Below, piece by piece: positions 3,833-18,299 of a stretch of DNA of 46,055 bases. A program made the translations under genes and the position numbers. Numbering within the stretch: position 1 is the first letter of the stretch; each line of letters begins with the position of its first letter. This stretch comes from an uncultured Nitrososphaerota archaeon (GTDB lineage: Archaea > Thermoproteota > EX4484-205 > JAAOZO01). The notes beneath the pieces were generated by a model, which ran no database searches, was not told where the DNA came from, and was given only the letters and a program-made list of their open reading frames with translations. Location: assembly GCA_964408285.1 (NCBI GenBank), contig CAYOYV010000009.1:8792-54846 (forward strand), written 5' to 3'.

Positions 3833-5278
3833 GTGGCCATGCCAGTGGCCTCGTATGCGGACCCGAACAAGATAAGATATGCAATGAGGTTTGTGAGAGA
3901 GGATCTGATTGACCGCACCTACTTCTACTTGCCTTTCAATATCCCAGAGGGAACGAAGAGAATCGAGGTCGCATATCGATATTCGCCTGGAGACCAGGGC
4001 GATCCGAACATCATAGACATAGGAGCATTCGGACCCGGCCCAACCGGCCTATTCAATATGGAACACTTCAGGGGCTGGAGCGGCAGTTTTAGAAATAGAT
4101 TCTATATATCCCAAGACGATTCGACTCCCGGATATCTGCGAGGAAGGGTCGAATCAGGAATCTGGAAAGTGATTCTGGGCTTGTACAAGATATCCAAGAC
4201 CGGCTGTGATTGCGAAGTTGAGATCTCTCCACTTCCTGAATTCGAAGAAAGACAGACAGCTGGTTCGGGGCATGAATGCTTCTCAGGGGTTGCTTCCCCA
4301 AGGGAAATTGGTTGGTCAAGGGGAGACCTACATGTGCATTCGGTTCACAGCGACGGGAATAATTCCATCCTCGAGCTTGCTAACGAAGCCAGAAGGAGGG
4401 GCCTGAACTATGTGGCCATAACTGATCACAACACGATTGCCCAAAGATGCGAAATCAATGAGATGGCCGCCCACGACCTGCTGATGTTTTCAGGGCAAGA
4501 GATCACTACATACCATGGCCACGCCAATGTGTGGGGAAACCGCAACTGTCTTGAATTCAGATGCCAGTCGGAATCAGATGTGTCCCTTCTTCTGGGGCGG
4601 GTCCATCAAGAAGGGCTGGTGTTCTCCATAAATCACCCGAATGACATTGGACCGAATTGGGAATTCAAGGGACTGAGGGGGTTCGATTGCCTTGAAGTAT
4701 GGTGTGGACTTTGGCCCAGATTGAACTTCCAGTCCTTGGAATGGTGGGATATGCTGCTTAATGAGGGAAACAGGGTAGTCGGTGTAGGAGGCAGCGATTT
4801 GCATGAAATAGAGGATAGCTCCTCTACGGACGGATATGGCGTGGGGAGTCCTACAACTTGGATTCATGCTGATGTGCTCACAAGCGATCTACTGACCTCT
4901 TCTATAGCTCGCGGCAACGTCTTCATCTCAAGGGATCCGGAGGGTCCTATGCTCAATCTAGAGGCTTGGAGTCCTTCGAACGATAAGCACGCGGTCATGG
5001 GAAGAGAGCTTGTTTCCAGAAAACACGAGCCGATATTCCTACGTCTCAACGTTCGATCCGCTGAAGGTGGATTTGCCAGATTGGTTGTTGACGGAAGGGG
5101 TAGCTCAATCGCGCGAATCGACTCCGGGGATTTCACCAAGGTCTGGCAACTAGAATCCGGGGCCAACAGATACTGCAGAATGGAGATCCTAAGCAAAGAT
5201 TCAGATCCAGATTCCAATGACAAAATGGATCAGGAAATCACCGCGCTCTCAAATCCGATATATATAAAACGCGTCTGA
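3833..5278 (+). CDS. CehA/McbA-family PHP-domain metallohydrolase
   Basis: GDLHVHSVHSDG, ITDHN, EITTYHGHAN, SINHP and GGSDLH PHP motifs, plus an N-terminal beta domain with FRGWSG/TPGYLRG. Confidence 0.8.
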   Translation: MAMPVASYADPNKIRYAMRFVREDLIDRTYFYLPFNIPEGTKRIEVAYRYSPGDQGDPNIIDIGAFGPGPTGLFNMEHFRGWSGSFRNRFYISQDDSTPGYLRGRVESGIWKVILGLYKISKTGCDCEVEISPLPEFEERQTAGSGHECFSGVASPREIGWSRGDLHVHSVHSDGNNSILELANEARRRGLNYVAITDHNTIAQRCEINEMAAHDLLMFSGQEITTYHGHANVWGNRNCLEFRCQSESDVSLLLGRVHQEGLVFSINHPNDIGPNWEFKGLRGFDCLEVWCGLWPRLNFQSLEWWDMLLNEGNRVVGVGGSDLHEIEDSSSTDGYGVGSPTTWIHADVLTSDLLTSSIARGNVFISRDPEGPMLNLEAWSPSNDKHAVMGRELVSRKHEPIFLRLNVRSAEGGFARLVVDGRGSSIARIDSGDFTKVWQLESGANRYCRMEILSKDSDPDSNDKMDQEITALSNPIYIKRV

Positions 5279-5298: not shown

Positions 5299-5991
5299 CT
5301 ACGGGAACAAGCTGAAAGCGAGGAGAACAGACCAGGAAACCAGCGGCACTGAGATGTTGTCGTCCACCAACTCATAGTGCTCCACCACGCTGGCTAGAAT
5401 AGCGGCAAGTATCCCCTTCCAACCAAAGGTGAAGTATCCTATTGGAATACACACCATCAGCATGGCTATATTGCCATCCCAAGATTTCACTCTCTTGGAG
5501 TAGAGGATGTTCCTCACTATTCCCGTTATTCCATCTCCAAAAGACATGAACAGTATGGGGACAACTGCCAGCCAGATGCCCCCTAGCTGTGCAGGGACAT
5601 ACCACATCAGGAGGATCAGGAAAGCCCAAACGACACAGAAATAGACTTCGGAGATGTTATCCTCGACTTGGAACCACTTGAAGATCCTACCAATCTTGTG
5701 TGGAATATATGTCATCATTGCAAGCCCCATGGCAAGGAGAAAAGGTACGAATGGTTCGGAGAGAAATGGAACGACCAAAGCGGTGAGGCCTCCCGAAAGG
5801 AAATGAATCACTTTCCGGGAAAAATAGGCTGCCTGAATCTCGCTTTTGCTCTTGTGCACTAGGATGAACGATTGCCTGGAGATCACGAAAACAACGGCAA
5901 GGTTCCAGACGAGGAGGATCGCCGTGGGAACCATGTCATTTGGTATTCTTGCTATATCAAGGGCTATCCTCGCAAATATCTCCTCGAACAT
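5299..5991 (-). CDS. Dolichol/phytol kinase-like integral membrane protein (CTP_transf_1 family)
   Basis: SRKVIH, SFGDGITGIV, KSWDGNIAM and DDNISVPL motifs with multiple TM helices. Confidence 0.8.
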   Translation of the reverse strand: MFEEIFARIALDIARIPNDMVPTAILLVWNLAVVFVISRQSFILVHKSKSEIQAAYFSRKVIHFLSGGLTALVVPFLSEPFVPFLLAMGLAMMTYIPHKIGRIFKWFQVEDNISEVYFCVVWAFLILLMWYVPAQLGGIWLAVVPILFMSFGDGITGIVRNILYSKRVKSWDGNIAMLMVCIPIGYFTFGWKGILAAILASVVEHYELVDDNISVPLVSWSVLLAFSLFP

Positions 5992-6091
5992 CGACCGACC
6001 TGTGCAGGTCGCTTCTCGTGCGTATTTATTGTGTCCTTCGAGGTTATGACGGAGTTCGACTATAGACTATTCGGCCTCGACTAGATCGGTT

Positions 6092-6391
6092 TCAGCCTCT
6101 TATTCCTCCTTCCCCGCAGATGACCCGATCGCCCATTCTCCTGACAAATCTGGAACAGGTGCCGCATTCGCTGACCAGCGTTGGTTCTCCATCCTGGGCG
6201 CAAGCCACAATCTCGACGGTGAAGGTTCTGTACCTTGGTGGATCTGGCTGAAGTCCCGATTGCTTGATGAATTCATCCTTGACAAAAATGGGCGAATATG
6301 AGTCCTCTGTATCGATAACGATCGGCACTTTCCTTATCCGGGGGAGAAGAGAATCCACCCCATTTGGCTTCCTATCCGCGAAGCGCCCCAT
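6092..6391 (-). CDS. Small Cys4 (Zn-binding) protein in the crenactin operon, arcadin-3-like by position
   Basis: ATG 6391 follows the upstream TAG after one base (TAG-C-ATG); 99 aa with C-x11-C-x2-C-x12-C. The arcadin-3 label rests on size and gene order only. Confidence 0.55.
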   Translation of the reverse strand: MGRFADRKPNGVDSLLPRIRKVPIVIDTEDSYSPIFVKDEFIKQSGLQPDPPRYRTFTVEIVACAQDGEPTLVSECGTCSRFVRRMGDRVICGEGGIRG

Positions 6392-6392
6392 G

Positions 6393-7052
6393 CTAGGGTT
6401 GGCCCCTTTCAACCAGGACTTCCAGCCACGGATTCTCTTGCAAGTAGGAGGGAAGTCCTTGGCTCACTCTTGGAGCTTTGAGGACCACCGGCGTTTCTGT
6501 CGATGCTATCCGAACTCCGCTTGCAGCAATTCTTCCCATCTCCGTTCTCAGCCTCTCGATTTCTTCCAGTACTGTTTCCATCTTGTCTTCCATAAGGCCT
6601 AGGGCTCTTTCGAGTGAGGCAACCCTTTCATCCAGGTGAATAAGGTCGTCGCTCGTCGAAGGGGACGGCTCTCGGCGGGCTGGCCCAAGGACCACATCGA
6701 GCTTCCTCGCAGGCAACGCTATTGCGACCCTTCTCTCGTCGAACGTAAGGAGGCCTACGCCATGCTCCGTCAGCAGTTCAGCGTCAATGGAAGAAGCATA
6801 CGATTTTGGCATGGCAAGGTAGACCTCGTTTGCCTTGCCAGACATTGAGGTGCTTCTGACCACAGCCCTGATCAGTGAATTCCTATCCGTCAATTCGTCC
6901 CTTGAAAGAGCCAACACCGCGATTATTCGCCCCTGCCCCTCAAAGACAGAGATCGGATGACCTGGCAGTCCGATCGCGACAGAGTTCTCGACTTGCCTGA
7001 GGCCTATAGATTCGAAATGCTGCCTAATTCGTCCTACGACATAGTTAGGCAT
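6393..7052 (-). CDS. rkd-2: Arcadin-2-like crenactin-binding protein
   Basis: Start overlaps the crenactin stop by 8 nt. Central heptad coiled coil (LDERVASLERALGLMEDKMETVLEEIERLRTEM). C-terminal LPSYLQENPWLEVL resembles the ENxWxxxL crenactin-binding helix of Pyrobaculum arcadin-2 (recalled, not aligned). Confidence 0.75.
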   Translation of the reverse strand: MPNYVVGRIRQHFESIGLRQVENSVAIGLPGHPISVFEGQGRIIAVLALSRDELTDRNSLIRAVVRSTSMSGKANEVYLAMPKSYASSIDAELLTEHGVGLLTFDERRVAIALPARKLDVVLGPARREPSPSTSDDLIHLDERVASLERALGLMEDKMETVLEEIERLRTEMGRIAASGVRIASTETPVVLKAPRVSQGLPSYLQENPWLEVLVERGQP

Positions 7053-8316
7053 GAAATCTCATCCAACCCTCCATTCTCTCCCAGCTCCACTCATAGTCCT
7101 GTGGGACTGCGTAGCCATAGACAATTGCGCCCCTCCACACTGAGAATTGAGGAGAATCTGTTGTGATGACGCTTACATCTGATATTTTCTGTCTCTGCAT
7201 CAACATCTTGAGCTTTGTGGCCGCGTCGGTAGCTGAATCCTGAACTCCATCGGGAGTTCTCCAGGAGAAGTTGCCCCCCGATAGTAGTATCTGTCTGTAG
7301 AGGTGAGGCTGCAACTCAACTGGCGTTCTCTCGACTGATTCGACTATCGCCTCTCCCAAGTCAAGCATCCCTCTGAAGTTGATATCGCCTATCTTCACAT
7401 CACTCGGCTTAGGCATTCCACGAGCGAAATAGCTCCCAAAGATTTCATTGTTGGGATCGAAAACATATTCTCCTATGAGAAATCTCATCCATGAGCTCTC
7501 GGATAGATCGACCTCTATTCTTGTGCCTTCAATCTTGCACCTCGCCCTAAATCTCTCTGGTTCATTCTTCGCTGCCTGTATGGATCTGCTGAGATCCAAA
7601 GGGACAAGGCCTATCGTCTCCTTGATGCGCCTAACGAGTGATTCCTCATGGGCAAGGTCTCCATAACCTGTGTCTCTCAGAATTTCCGATGTGATGTTGT
7701 TGCCATCTCCTCCCCCTCTGTTTAATGCGACTATCGCGTTCCTTATGGGATATCTTGAGATGGGAGCAACCTGTGTGTTCCCGTGTCCACTTTCCAGTAC
7801 CACGCAGGTCAGGATCTTGTGGGCAATCGCAACGCACAGGGGTTGAGGGATTATTGTGACTGCGGATATTGTGCCGTCTGCTTCACCGATTTCCCTGAAT
7901 GCATTGAGAAATCTTTCATACATGTATCTAGGAGTCACCGAGGATAGGGAGGCGACCAGATGGAAACCTCTGAAATCTGCGTCAGCAGGCCTGAATCTGT
8001 TCAGGGCATACCTTGAGAGTTCCTTCACGACGATCCATGCCCTTTCATCATCCTTCTCGATTATTCCGTTCTTCATAGGGTATATGAGCCTAGAAGACAG
8101 ATCTTCCCGAGCCTCAAGGTAGAATGGGATTTCCTTGCCAACAATTACATCGGCCTCGACCCCTGCAATCTTCGACATTATAGATCTCCTGTCGGGAAAA
8201 TAGCCCCTGTTCTCCAACATCTCTGGCATCTCGCCCAAGCTTATCGGTCCGAACTTGAAATCCCTCGTTCCAAAATCCATGCCGAAGATATATTTCTGCT
8301 TCAACGCCTCAGACAA
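7045..8316 (-). CDS. cren-1: Crenactin (archaeal actin homologue)
   Basis: Actin-fold motifs: phosphate-1 FGMDFGTRDFKFG, YPMKNG, connect-1 IPQPLCVAIA, phosphate-2 ESGHGNTQVAPI, LNRGG, RFLIGEYVFDP, adenosine ILLSGGNFSW, connect-2 PQFSVWRGAIVYGYA. These match crenactin rather than MreB/ParM; 423 aa. Confidence 0.95.
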   Translation of the reverse strand: MSEALKQKYIFGMDFGTRDFKFGPISLGEMPEMLENRGYFPDRRSIMSKIAGVEADVIVGKEIPFYLEAREDLSSRLIYPMKNGIIEKDDERAWIVVKELSRYALNRFRPADADFRGFHLVASLSSVTPRYMYERFLNAFREIGEADGTISAVTIIPQPLCVAIAHKILTCVVLESGHGNTQVAPISRYPIRNAIVALNRGGGDGNNITSEILRDTGYGDLAHEESLVRRIKETIGLVPLDLSRSIQAAKNEPERFRARCKIEGTRIEVDLSESSWMRFLIGEYVFDPNNEIFGSYFARGMPKPSDVKIGDINFRGMLDLGEAIVESVERTPVELQPHLYRQILLSGGNFSWRTPDGVQDSATDAATKLKMLMQRQKISDVSVITTDSPQFSVWRGAIVYGYAVPQDYEWSWERMEGWMRFHA

Positions 8317-8357
8317 GATGGTCTACAGCCTATTGTTGATCATGTTGGACTGATTGC

Positions 8358-8364
8358 TTTAAAA
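8358..8364 (-). promoter_or_regulatory. TATA box of the crenactin operon
   Basis: TTTTAAA on the minus strand about 42-48 nt upstream of the crenactin TTG, in the 69-bp gap. Confidence 0.5.
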
Positions 8365-8385
8365 CCTTCAGCACACCCAGTCTCC

Positions 8386-8979
8386 TCAATGAAAGTGCAA
8401 AATCTTAGCTAGCCTATGGACGAAGTCGTCTCCCTCGATGCCCATAACTTCACGTAGGATGCCTTCAGGCTTCATTGTGAATGAGTTGTAGGTACCCTCA
8501 ATGCTCAGGGCCCCAGCCGACGGATAGGCATTCACTGTGATGTCTCGTCCAGATGCCCGAATCGAGAAGCAGAAGTTACCCCCTTCTGCCACTCGCAGTT
8601 CTTTTCCATGGGTTGTCCTCGCCTTGAGCAATATCCTTTGGAAGTCAATCGGACCTCTTGCCGAAATCCTTAGTTCGCAAAGAGGACTCTCAATGGTGGC
8701 AATTCGAAGAATCGACTCAATAAATGAAATTTCACTGACGCTTCTAAATCCAACGGACACTGCATAGTACCCGTCCCTTCGCGCAGTTGGAAGAAATCTG
8801 TATACGATGCCACCTTCCGTGAGATAGTCCCCGCCCTTTATCTCCCATACCTTTGTTTTTTCCTTGATCCTCTGGAAAACAAGCTCCTCCATCCTATCCG
8901 CCGAAAAGCTATTCCCTCTGTCGCGAAGATACACGGTGATAGCTCCCCCATAGACAACTTGATTCCCATTCTCGACCAT
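8386..8979 (-). CDS. Hypothetical soluble alpha/beta protein upstream of crenactin
   Basis: 197-aa ATG-started ORF filling the gap between the permease and crenactin; no confident family motif. Confidence 0.65.
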   Translation of the reverse strand: MVENGNQVVYGGAITVYLRDRGNSFSADRMEELVFQRIKEKTKVWEIKGGDYLTEGGIVYRFLPTARRDGYYAVSVGFRSVSEISFIESILRIATIESPLCELRISARGPIDFQRILLKARTTHGKELRVAEGGNFCFSIRASGRDITVNAYPSAGALSIEGTYNSFTMKPEGILREVMGIEGDDFVHRLAKILHFH

Positions 8980-9007
8980 GCTCTATTCGCTATCTTGCAG
9001 AAACGTT

Positions 9008-10348
9008 TTATCGTTTTCCGAAGCTCATCTGAAGGTCGACTTGGCGATGGGTTAGACGCGCACGCGACCCTCTTGTGTAGATCACGTACCAGCTCAATCC
9101 CGCAATCGCTACCAGGCCTCCTAGGAGAACCGTTCCCAGTCCAAGGCTAAGACACAGGGCACAGCTCATCATCAAACCGGCCAGGCTATGAAGAGGACGA
9201 ATTGGTGACTTGAAAGGGACATTGTTTCTGCTGGATCGGTATAGCTTGAAGGCAGCATAGTTCGTGAAGATGTGGGTGAAAAGAATGCAGAAGCTGGCAA
9301 GGGAAGCCAATCCAGTTATGTCTATTGACATGGCAAACATCACCATTATGATTCCCGAAAGGATGATCGAATATATGGGGGTGTCAAACCTCGGGTGCAC
9401 ATCCGAAAGGATAAGGGGGACCTCCCCGTTGCGAGCCATGGCAAAGAAGATCCTAGACTGTCCCATAACTGATGTCAGAATGACGCTGAAAGTTGCCACT
9501 AGGGCGCCAATTTCCAAAACGGACCTCAATCCCAAGGCCTCCGCAGCATCTCCTATGGGAGTCACCGATGCTCCGAGCTTTTCATACCCGATCAACCCAA
9601 CGGCAGTAATCGCTGTCAGGAAATACAACAACACTGACAAAACAAGGGCGATTATTATGGCAGCAGGTATGTTCCTTTCTGGTTGCTTGATTTCCTCTGC
9701 GGTCGTGGAGATTCTGGGAAAACCTATGTAGGCGAAGTAGAAGAGTCCAGCAGCTTGGACTACGGGGAGAAAGCCGTTGGGGAATGGATTGCTGAAATTT
9801 GATATTTCGATTTGGGACAGTCCAATGAGCAGGAAAAGCAACAAGGCGCCAATCTTCACTAGAACGAGGACATCATTCACCATTGCTGATAGCCTGATCC
9901 CCATCACGTTCAGGAAGACCACGATTGTGAGGATCACGATGGCCGCTGTCTTGAATGGAATGAAGGTGAGAATGGATGATAGGTAGTATCCGAATCCGAT
10001 GCTCGCGGTTGCTCCAAGAACGATGTTTCCCAACACCCACATCCAACCAAGAAGGAATCCCGTCGAGTGAGATATGATCTCGTGGCCATACTCGTAGACT
10101 CCGCCTGCTCTTGGCATCGCCGACCCAAGTTCCGCGAAACTCAGGGCCGAGAATGTAGCGCTGAGTCCAGACAGAAGAACTGAAAGAAACACGCTTGGAC
10201 CGGCCATGCCTGCTGCCGCCCCGATTACGACGAATATCCCTGCACCGATCATCGCACCAAGACCAATGGAGACAGCGTCGAGCAGTCCTATCTTTCTCTT
10301 AAGAGATGATCGAATTGCATCTGGTGCCGTAGTCGACAATTTATTCAC
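9008..10348 (-). CDS. APC-family amino acid permease
   Basis: GAMIGAGIF, FAELGSAMPRAGGVYEY, FYFAYIGF, AEEIKQPERNIP and SRIFFAMARNG motifs; about 12 TM. Confidence 0.93.
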   Translation of the reverse strand: MNKLSTTAPDAIRSSLKRKIGLLDAVSIGLGAMIGAGIFVVIGAAAGMAGPSVFLSVLLSGLSATFSALSFAELGSAMPRAGGVYEYGHEIISHSTGFLLGWMWVLGNIVLGATASIGFGYYLSSILTFIPFKTAAIVILTIVVFLNVMGIRLSAMVNDVLVLVKIGALLLFLLIGLSQIEISNFSNPFPNGFLPVVQAAGLFYFAYIGFPRISTTAEEIKQPERNIPAAIIIALVLSVLLYFLTAITAVGLIGYEKLGASVTPIGDAAEALGLRSVLEIGALVATFSVILTSVMGQSRIFFAMARNGEVPLILSDVHPRFDTPIYSIILSGIIMVMFAMSIDITGLASLASFCILFTHIFTNYAAFKLYRSSRNNVPFKSPIRPLHSLAGLMMSCALCLSLGLGTVLLGGLVAIAGLSWYVIYTRGSRARLTHRQVDLQMSFGKR

Positions 10349-17615: not shown

Positions 17616-18299
17616 ATGGTAAAGGAAACGGGATTCAAGATTGACCTTCACGTTCATACAGAATACTCGGAGGACTCAGTCATAGACCCCAGGGATCTAG
17701 CAAGGCTCGCAAGAAACAAGGGACTCAGAGGCATCGCTATAACTGATCACGGCACAATGGAAGCATGCGGACAGCTGAGTAGTCTCGATGACGTTCTGAT
17801 CATAAGGGGCGTAGAGACTTATACGAACAAGGGCCACATGATTTCGCTCTTCGTTGAGGAACCTCCGAAGTCCAATGACCTGGATGAAGCCATCGATCAG
17901 ACAAGAGCGCAGGGAGGCCTAACGATCATGGCTCATCCATTCGGATTCCCTAGATTGGGCTACGTCCTCGGAACGACTGAGACAGACCGCTATGTCCCAC
18001 TGGCGAGGAGATTTGATGCAATTGAGGTCTGCAATTCTAGAGTAATACTCCCTGTGCAGAACGATTTGGCTAGAGAACTCGCGGCCAAGGCCAGAAGGCC
18101 AGCAACCGGAGGAAGCGATTGTCATCTTGGTCACGAACTGGGGAATTGCTACACCCTTTTTGAAGATGCCTCGTCGGAGGATGATGTCTATCGCCAACTC
18201 AAGAACGGGAATACGGCAGGATGTGGTGGCTTGAGTTCGCCCATGGGCCACGCCTTGAGCTTGCTGGCCAGGGTCCACAAAATCATTTCGGGGCAATAG
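17616..18299 (+). CDS. PHP-domain phosphoesterase
   Basis: DLHVHTEYSED, ITDH, AHPF, IEVCN and GGSDCH motifs. Confidence 0.9.
   Translation: MVKETGFKIDLHVHTEYSEDSVIDPRDLARLARNKGLRGIAITDHGTMEACGQLSSLDDVLIIRGVETYTNKGHMISLFVEEPPKSNDLDEAIDQTRAQGGLTIMAHPFGFPRLGYVLGTTETDRYVPLARRFDAIEVCNSRVILPVQNDLARELAAKARRPATGGSDCHLGHELGNCYTLFEDASSEDDVYRQLKNGNTAGCGGLSSPMGHALSLLARVHKIISGQ

Follow-up and report, generated by a model that had tools for sequence, protein, structure and literature searches.

A crenactin gene cluster with a divergent arcadin-2 and two unnamed conserved partners in an uncultured Nitrososphaerota archaeon

Introduction

Among non-Asgard prokaryotic proteins, crenactin is the closest relative of eukaryotic actin, and to our knowledge arcadin-2 is the sole crenactin regulator understood so far, from work in one genus. 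The arcade cluster of Pyrobaculum calidifontis, reportedly set out by Ettema et al. in 2011, consists of arcadin-1, crenactin, arcadin-2, arcadin-3 and arcadin-4, in that order. Here we describe the crenactin locus of an uncultured Nitrososphaerota archaeon, which lies on a 46,055-nucleotide (nt) stretch of DNA (GenBank assembly GCA_964408285.1, contig CAYOYV010000009.1, positions 8,792 to 54,846) that we refer to as a whole as the window. A first-pass annotation, made from the letters of the window, read the locus as a minimal three-gene crenactin operon without arcadin-1 or arcadin-4, and as a reduced or rewired actin module. We find a fourth conserved gene directly upstream of crenactin and consider it probable that the locus is a four-gene crenactin module (up197, crenactin, arcadin-2 and g99, the first and last being unnamed families), representing an alternative version of the arcade cluster that is widespread, and not a lineage-specific reduction of it.

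Passages of Izore et al. 2016 (PMC5173319) describe how arcadin-2 acts: its last 17 residues, which include a tryptophan, bind the hydrophobic groove of crenactin and depolymerise the filaments. The same passages name Q164 as the nucleophilic-water glutamine of P. calidifontis crenactin and report that the changes V339K and E340K block its polymerisation. According to passages of PMC4571567, crenactin was already known from Bathyarchaeota and Aigarchaeota by 2015. Passages of Kohtz et al. 2022 (PMC9723716) list crenactin with arcadin-1 and arcadin-2 in Caldarchaeales (Aigarchaeota), crenactin with arcadin-1, -2 and -4 in marine Culexarchaeia, and crenactin with no detected arcadins in some Methanomethylicales. 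That survey is one of arCOG presence and absence, and those passages contain neither up197 nor g99 nor gene order. In the main texts of the open literature searched, we found no account of the up197 and g99 families, of how the genes are ordered outside Thermoproteales, or of a Brockarchaeota crenactin; in its main text, De Anda et al. 2021 on Brockarchaeota uses none of the terms actin, crenactin, cell division, cytoskelet- and FtsZ.

Crenactin and arcadin-2

The 423-amino-acid (aa) protein of the locus matches the P. calidifontis crenactin sequence (PDB 4cj7) over residues 2-419 with an E value of 4e-112. In contrast, the next-best PDB sequence is Arp6 at 1.5e-9, and actins, Arp3 and other Arps all fall within 1e-9 to 1e-7. 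On profile models, the protein scores 552.6 bits (E 5.6e-166) on the NCBIfam crenactin family NF053560, compared with 9.2e-13 on Pfam Actin and 1.1e-7 on the MamK model. Judged by these matches it is a member of the crenactin family (NF053560; PDB 4cj7 and 5ly4), as the first-pass annotation had it. In a HMMER alignment to 4cj7 the window protein keeps the PQPL glutamine (P. calidifontis Q164) as well as the V-E pair of VE(I/L)Q (P. calidifontis V339/E340), and Q158, E334 and Q336 are invariant in our crenactin alignment A1. Because the ATPase motifs and polymerisation residues are retained, the protein most likely forms ATP-dependent, F-actin-like double filaments. Its gene is single-copy in the 1.82-Mb, 46-contig genome (G000), which is 93.7% complete; no second copy of any gene of the cluster was found there, up197 and g99 being present once each. 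The window crenactin is 42% identical by tblastn, and 43% in alignment A1, to the protein of genome G035, from which we re-derived the reference arcade-type cluster.

The gene that follows crenactin encodes a 219-aa protein that had been proposed to be a regulator. Taken alone it reaches 13.2 bits (E 0.052) on the arcadin-2 model NF053561 (Rkd2), and a search of PDB sequences with it returned coiled-coil noise only. Nevertheless, NF053561 is the family most commonly matched by its relatives (43 of 60 at E<=0.1). An iterated hidden Markov model (HMM) grown from the 219-aa protein retrieved the genuine, Thermoproteales-type arcadin-2 of G035 (L105:7659-8240, 307.8 bits on NF053561) at 5.9e-28. 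Since such a model may have absorbed its own target, it was rebuilt from 77 members without any Thermoprotei sequence, and the genuine arcadin-2 was still matched at 7.2e-13 over nearly its full length.

In the alignment, the 219-aa protein carries an alpha/beta domain at its N terminus, then a coiled coil and a variable linker, and at its C terminus a motif with the consensus LPSFLxDNPWxEILSxRG, of which N207, W209 and L213 are invariant in 60 of 60 sequences, the genuine arcadin-2 included. This architecture and the invariant N/W/L motif match the published arcadin-2 mechanism, which supports the identity; by profile homology and C-terminal motif the protein is a divergent arcadin-2, and the proposal of a regulator is upheld. 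By homology, its C-terminal helix would bind the crenactin groove. On the analogy of the published mechanism, the N-P-W-x-E-x-L helix would insert into the hydrophobic groove, where it would compete with the next subunit's D-loop, and the groove-bound protein would thereby sequester monomers or depolymerise filaments.

Gene order and distribution

A scan of species-representative genomes yielded 224 stretches with a relative, and the loci named here are the best 80 of these 224. The synteny set comprises 87 distinct loci, 85 of them with a crenactin open reading frame (ORF). Among the best 80 of 224, the sources are Bathyarchaeia, Caldarchaeales, Brockarchaeota, Culexarchaeia, one Methanomethylicota record and some metagenome-assembled genomes labelled Thermoprotei; the Caldarchaeales loci among them belong to Wolframiiraptor, Geocrenenecus, Caldarchaeum and Pelearchaeum. 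Arcadin-2 adjoins crenactin in 77 of the 78 loci with at least 1200 nt of downstream sequence, lying downstream of it in 76 loci and upstream in 5. Where at least 700 nt of upstream sequence is available, up197 is present in 49 of 77 loci, and in every locus that carries it (50/50) it sits directly 5' of crenactin on the same strand, with an overlap in 30. The smaller gene g99 is present in 34 of the 78 loci with at least 1200 nt downstream and lies directly 3' of arcadin-2 in all 35 loci that have it. All four genes occur together in 14 of 87 loci, including the window. The features of the locus are collected in Table 1.

The phylum-wide picture comes from a sample of 401 evenly drawn genomes, in which crenactin was called at E<=1e-30. 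Crenactin is found in 137 of these genomes, 40 above the 630-bit cut-off of NF053560 and 97 below it, the latter being the type of the window. The up197 family is found in 45 genomes, 44 with crenactin and one with a crenactin fragment; in 43 of the 45 the match adjoins crenactin, and two weak matches lie elsewhere. Similarly, 18 of the 19 genomes with g99 have crenactin (one as a contig-end fragment), 16 of the matches adjoin it, and one weak match falls in a genome without crenactin. On these comparisons, the cluster of the window is the full four-gene version of a crenactin-arcadin-2 layout that prevails across non-Thermoprotei Thermoproteota, and the description of a minimal three-gene operon has to give way to one with up197 as a fourth member.

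One could instead take g99 and/or up197 to be mere conserved neighbours, such as hitch-hiking ORFs or genes of another pathway. After all, g99 is missing from 44 of 78 crenactin loci and up197 from 28 of 77, and Thermoproteales crenactin works without either. We nevertheless regard this as very improbable: the position and strand of both genes are fixed across class-level divergence, their stop and start codons often overlap those of the adjoining genes, and no strong match to either was found outside crenactin-bearing genomes among the 401. Both families are, moreover, otherwise unnamed and single-copy in G000.

Table 1. Features of the crenactin locus, with positions numbered along the window
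Feature	Position	Strand	Basis or remark
up197, 197 aa, unnamed family	8386-8979	minus	ORF directly upstream of crenactin, outside the span of the first-pass annotation
Crenactin homologue, 423 aa, TTG start	7045-8316	minus	ORF and homology
Divergent arcadin-2 homologue, 219 aa	6393-7052	minus	ORF and profile homology
g99, 99 aa from ATG, unnamed family	6092-6391	minus	ORF directly downstream of arcadin-2
TTTTAAA, TATA-like box	8358-8364	minus	In the 69-nt gap from up197 to crenactin
Arcadin-2 C-terminal motif LPSYLQENPWLEVLVER, residues 200-216	6405-6455	minus	Presumed crenactin-groove-binding helix
g99 motif C64-x2-D67-x8-C76-x2-C79	6155-6202	minus	Candidate metal site

Some individual loci are worth recording. 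Arcadin-2 is upstream of crenactin in L021/L106, L065, L087, L097 and L103, which include Caldarchaeum- and Pelearchaeum-labelled loci, and neither up197 nor g99 occurs there. In L036, the Methanomethylicota-labelled locus, arcadin-2 and g99 adjoin crenactin. The closest named relatives of the window's organism, from the same family or order, go by the name Candidatus Brockarchaeota in public records or bear the generic labels Thermoproteota, Thaumarchaeota or Nitrososphaera.

Within the window's order, g99 was found in G000, G002 and G006 only. The window crenactin is 65-69% identical to those of G002 and Bathyarchaeia and 58-62% identical to those of other genomes of its own family and order, and the distribution of g99 mirrors this pattern. 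Together, the identities and the distribution of g99 suggest that the cluster was transferred or else that rates are uneven. A neighbour-joining crenactin tree built in Biopython, without support values, pairs the window protein with that of G002 and leaves its placement unresolved; the "Thermoprotei" root of this tree is not monophyletic, and we base no claim of ancestry or transfer on it.

Comparison with the arcade cluster and other arcadins

The locus shares with the Thermoproteales arcade cluster the succession of crenactin and arcadin-2 on the same strand, the build of arcadin-2 (N-domain, coiled coil, linker and C-terminal tryptophan helix), a small gene after arcadin-2 and another gene directly before crenactin. 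The occupants of the two flanking positions differ, however. In place of arcadin-1 (113 aa) stands the unrelated up197, with two alpha/beta repeats, in place of arcadin-3 stands the unrelated, Cys-rich and beta-rich g99, and the SMC-like arcadin-4 is missing from the cluster. As in the Caldarchaeales and Culexarchaeia covered by the passages of PMC9723716, the window's organism has a non-Thermoproteales crenactin accompanied by arcadin-2, plus a homologue of arcadin-1 encoded elsewhere in the genome, and the loci from Caldarchaeales and Culexarchaeia in our set carry the same crenactin neighbours as the window.

We searched the 93.7%-complete genome for the arcadins missing from the cluster. 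Arcadin-4 (NF053563) was not found genome-wide, in line with the first-pass annotation of the operon: the best match reaches 58.4 bits against a cut-off of 860 and is Rad50, encoded beside Mre11, and a purpose-built arcadin-4 HMM added only SMC. Arcadin-3 (NF053562) was likewise not found in the genome (best E 0.21). Genuine arcadin-3, as seen in four Thermoprotei-type loci, is a helical protein of 56-74 aa without Cys, encoded between arcadin-2 and arcadin-4.

The case of arcadin-1 is different. The cluster indeed lacks it, but the genome does not: contig C1 carries an unlinked arcadin-1-family gene of 107 aa (G000 C1:208101-208445, minus strand; locus L123:5099-5422), so that the earlier statement of absence stands for the cluster and fails for the genome, an outcome that the first-pass annotation itself had named as counting against its reading. 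This protein scores 21.6 bits (E 2.3e-4) on PF18653 across positions 5-108 of 111, short of the gathering cut-off of 25 bits, and is matched at 7e-39 by an HMM built on five arcadin-1-like proteins encoded in genomes of its order; those five pass PF18653 themselves, at 26.3-40.3 bits. Its neighbours encode an M20 peptidase (with a 4-nt overlap), a D-aminoacyl-tRNA deacylase and an Lhr helicase. The genome search with PF18653 alone had missed this gene, so the other negatives of that search (Snf7, Vps4_C, MIT) are weak.

Across the 401 genomes, Arcadin_1 (PF18653) is found in 219, compared with 137 for crenactin, and its genes mostly lie far from crenactin. It is present in 17 of 17 genomes of family f4 and 3 of 5 of f1, and also where crenactin was not found at all, as in f15 (25/25 versus 0/25) and f12 (7/8 versus 0/8). 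Arcadin_1 may thus not be a crenactin-specific factor, and because it is both wider than crenactin and mostly unlinked, a cluster that lacks it is the usual case and not the result of a loss.

These results bear on the possibility that the locus is a minimal three-gene operon, produced in one TACK lineage by reduction or rewiring of the five-gene arcade cluster with loss of arcadin-1 and arcadin-4. Such a reduction would account for arcadin-1, -3 and -4 being outside the cluster, the latter two not found in the genome, and for a TATA-like box that parts the three genes from the gene upstream. It has to contend, however, with the conserved partner up197 directly upstream and with the arcadin-1-family gene elsewhere in the genome. 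Furthermore, the same layout prevails among the Bathyarchaeia, Caldarchaeales, Brockarchaeota and Culexarchaeia loci, and just 4 of the 87 loci have arcadin-1 and/or arcadin-4 beside crenactin, these four being of the Thermoprotei type. With Arcadin_1 itself more widespread than crenactin, we consider reduction within a single lineage improbable and do not retain that part of the earlier interpretation.

The g99 and up197 proteins

No Pfam or NCBIfam family matches g99, and no Pfam zinc ribbon is among the matches. Its relatives form 180 database clusters, every one of them labelled "hypothetical protein" without a Pfam assignment, and a protein atlas places it in unnamed archaeal clusters only. 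Its frame also offers an alternative TTG start at 6412, which would give 106 aa. The first-pass annotation had called this a Zn protein. Of that, the small size holds, and so does a conserved Cys-rich motif: C64, D67 and C79 are present in all 151 distinct sequences of the family and C76 in 150. The fourth Cys proposed, at position 92, is not conserved (C in 69 and F in 82 of 151). The candidate metal site is then CxxD-x8-CxxC, and zinc is at most a plausible guess.

The AlphaFold2 (AF2) model of g99 has a predicted local distance difference test (pLDDT) score of 84.3, with a core above 90. Foldseek searches of the PDB with it gave no hit at E<1, and its highest VIA Z among 48,161 chains was 2.8. 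We also compared g99 with the arcadins whose place it might fill; hhalign gave probabilities of 0.13% against arcadin-3 and 0.49% against arcadin-1, and both identities were rejected.

For up197, too, no Pfam or NCBIfam family was found, nor any consistent Pfam match among 49 members, and its database relatives are labelled "hypothetical protein". Its identity with arcadin-1 was rejected (hhalign probability 0.15% against Arcadin_1). The AF2 model (pLDDT 88.8, predicted template modelling score 0.82) consists of two tandem beta-alpha-beta-sheet-alpha repeats. The confidence of the AF2 models shows g99 and up197 to be, as predicted structures, real folded proteins and not spurious ORFs. The up197 fold matches generic two-layer alpha/beta proteins, including AdoMetDC (Foldseek E 5e-4, template modelling (TM) score 0.41), TBP, glutamine synthetase and Med18/20; with a best VIA Z of 7.1, no clear PDB relative emerged, and we deduce no function from these matches. 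A database copy of up197 has been annotated at 168 aa, 29 residues fewer; the homologue alignment, which covers profile positions 9-190, and an N-terminal strand modelled with confidence both speak for the longer ATG start.

Many TBP chains are among the matches to up197 (Foldseek E about 1e-3, TM 0.3-0.37; VIA Z 5.5-5.8), and this weak resemblance could be read as a sign of DNA binding. The locus would then be a DNA-segregation module like ParMRC, with up197 or g99 as the DNA adaptor and arcadin-2 engaging the crenactin groove as ParR does that of ParM. Passages of Izore et al. (PMC5173319) do report that ParR uses the equivalent groove on ParM, and the text of PMC9723716 places Pyrobaculum arcadin-2 between segregated nucleoids. 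Like ParM/ParR/parC and AlfA/AlfB, moreover, the locus encodes an actin-like ATPase together with small adaptor genes. The resemblance to TBP, however, is no better than that to unrelated folds such as the best VIA match, and the adaptors of the two kinds of system are unrelated. The crenactin locus is part of the chromosome, occurs once and is conserved throughout the phylum, standing amid housekeeping genes with nothing plasmid- or virus-like nearby, and its filament protein is of the crenactin/F-actin type, crenactin filaments being F-actin-like and not ParM-like in passages of PMC5173319. No centromere turned up at the locus, where no search for repeats or centromere-like sites was made. 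A segregation module of this kind is in our view unlikely.

Promoter region

The sequence features described in the first-pass annotation, namely three minus-strand ORFs, an 8-nt overlap of crenactin and arcadin-2 (ATGCCTAA), a TAG, C, ATG junction from arcadin-2 to g99 and an upstream TTTTAAA box, are all present. The box lies 42-48 nt upstream of the crenactin TTG. No other copy occurs on either strand of the 46-kb window; with 3.6 expected by chance, the count itself is not above chance.

Conservation supports the placement of the box: an equivalent one is kept in each of the 14 f1 and f4 loci where a gap separates up197 from crenactin. In 13 of these a T-rich box (TTTTTTAAATAG or TTTTAAA) lies at -46 to -50 of the TTG, and in L025 a T-rich TATA-like box lies at -41 of the crenactin start. 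The start codon itself is TTG in all 14 (TTGTCYGARGCG in 13, TTGTCTTCATTC in L025). No T-rich box was found in the three f1 loci without the gap, and in Bathyarchaeia and Caldarchaeales up197 runs 4 nt into crenactin. The pattern supports a separate promoter for crenactin, arcadin-2 and g99 in the window's order, in agreement with the promoter box first proposed. These three genes would be transcribed from the TATA-like box between up197 and crenactin there, and in many other lineages the four genes overlap and would be operon-like.

Division genes and surroundings of the locus

FtsZ/tubulin was not found in the 23 crenactin-positive genomes of families f1 and f4, G000 included, and a tblastn search of G000 with FtsZ from a relative reached E 0.4 at best. 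In the same order, FtsZ/tubulin was found in f2 (1/1, which also has crenactin) and f3 (2/2, in which crenactin was not found). Across f1 to f4 the occurrence of FtsZ and crenactin is thus nearly reciprocal.

Relatives of the window's organism (L127, L128) encode a Vps4/CdvC-like ATPase with MIT, AAA and Vps4_C domains, flanked by ESCRT-III-like genes; the ATPase occurs in 5 of 5 genomes of f1 and 16 of 17 of f4. In G000, an ESCRT-III-like ORF is present at C1:86049-86678 (locus L129:2050-2679; Snf7 E 1.3e-3), and CdvC was not found in the assembly by profile search, which is a weak negative.

The remaining genes of the window are housekeeping and transport genes. Two encode PHP-domain phosphoesterase-like proteins (3833-5278 and 17616-18299, both on the plus strand). 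Just downstream of g99 lies a gene for an unannotated 230-aa membrane protein (5299-5991, minus strand), which had no tblastn match in the +/-1.5-kb flanks of the crenactin loci of 23 relatives. Near-identical DNA to window positions 5900-9100 is present in eight sediment or freshwater-sediment metagenome runs (at least half of the sampled words; one run may be the source), and no RNA runs are listed as matching this segment.

Discussion

The window carries a crenactin and a divergent arcadin-2 in the order familiar from Thermoproteales, enclosed by two genes of families not seen in the arcade cluster. Eukaryotic and Asgard actins with their regulators (thymosin beta4, WH2, profilin, gelsolin) are a more distant parallel. 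Both sides have an actin fold that builds filaments and, going by homology with the mechanism given for arcadin-2 in passages of PMC5173319, a regulator whose helix enters the hydrophobic groove; in contrast to that shared mode of binding, the groove-binding regulators have no sequence relation to arcadin-2.

Several observations weigh against reading the locus as a four-gene module of a widespread alternative type. The best 80 of 224 stretches favour query-like, non-Thermoproteales loci, which leaves the Thermoproteales type under-represented in the synteny counts. Neither of the two better-known proteins is an NCBI "equivalog": the 552.6 bits of the crenactin fall below the 630-bit cut-off of NF053560, and the 13.2 bits of the 219-aa protein compare with a cut-off of 290 for NF053561. 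We infer both transcription and promoter activity of the TATA-like box from sequence. Foldseek and VIA returned no fold relative hinting at a function for g99 or up197, and no g99 fusions were found among longer proteins, which is weak evidence. Lastly, g99 was found in none of the 17 genomes of family f4. Not being found in most same-order relatives, it would be dispensable for crenactin function there.

With these points taken into account, a four-gene crenactin module remains the reading that we favour. Judged from synteny and co-occurrence, g99 and up197 would be accessory factors dedicated to the crenactin system, holding the arcadin-3 and arcadin-1 positions of the arcade cluster although unrelated to either. 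In this light it is the five-gene Pyrobaculum cluster that looks like a special case, and arcadin-1 seems to be widely distributed rather than tied to crenactin.

A more far-reaching scenario is possible, if rather doubtful. In it, up197 and g99 would bind or regulate actin, and the four genes would constitute the widespread, possibly ancestral actin module of Thermoproteota; Thermoproteales would later have exchanged up197 and g99, in the same places, for arcadin-1, -3 and -4. In the FtsZ-less Brockarchaeota-type families, such a module would be a main determinant of cell shape or of a division step, alongside ESCRT-III.

What is new here is that two unnamed families travel with crenactin and arcadin-2 outside Thermoproteales, at fixed positions and across about 85 relatives. 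At 99 and 197 aa, g99 and up197 are small, well-folded candidates for new actin-associated proteins, and the crenactin of mesophilic sediment archaea would offer an in vitro partner for such candidates.

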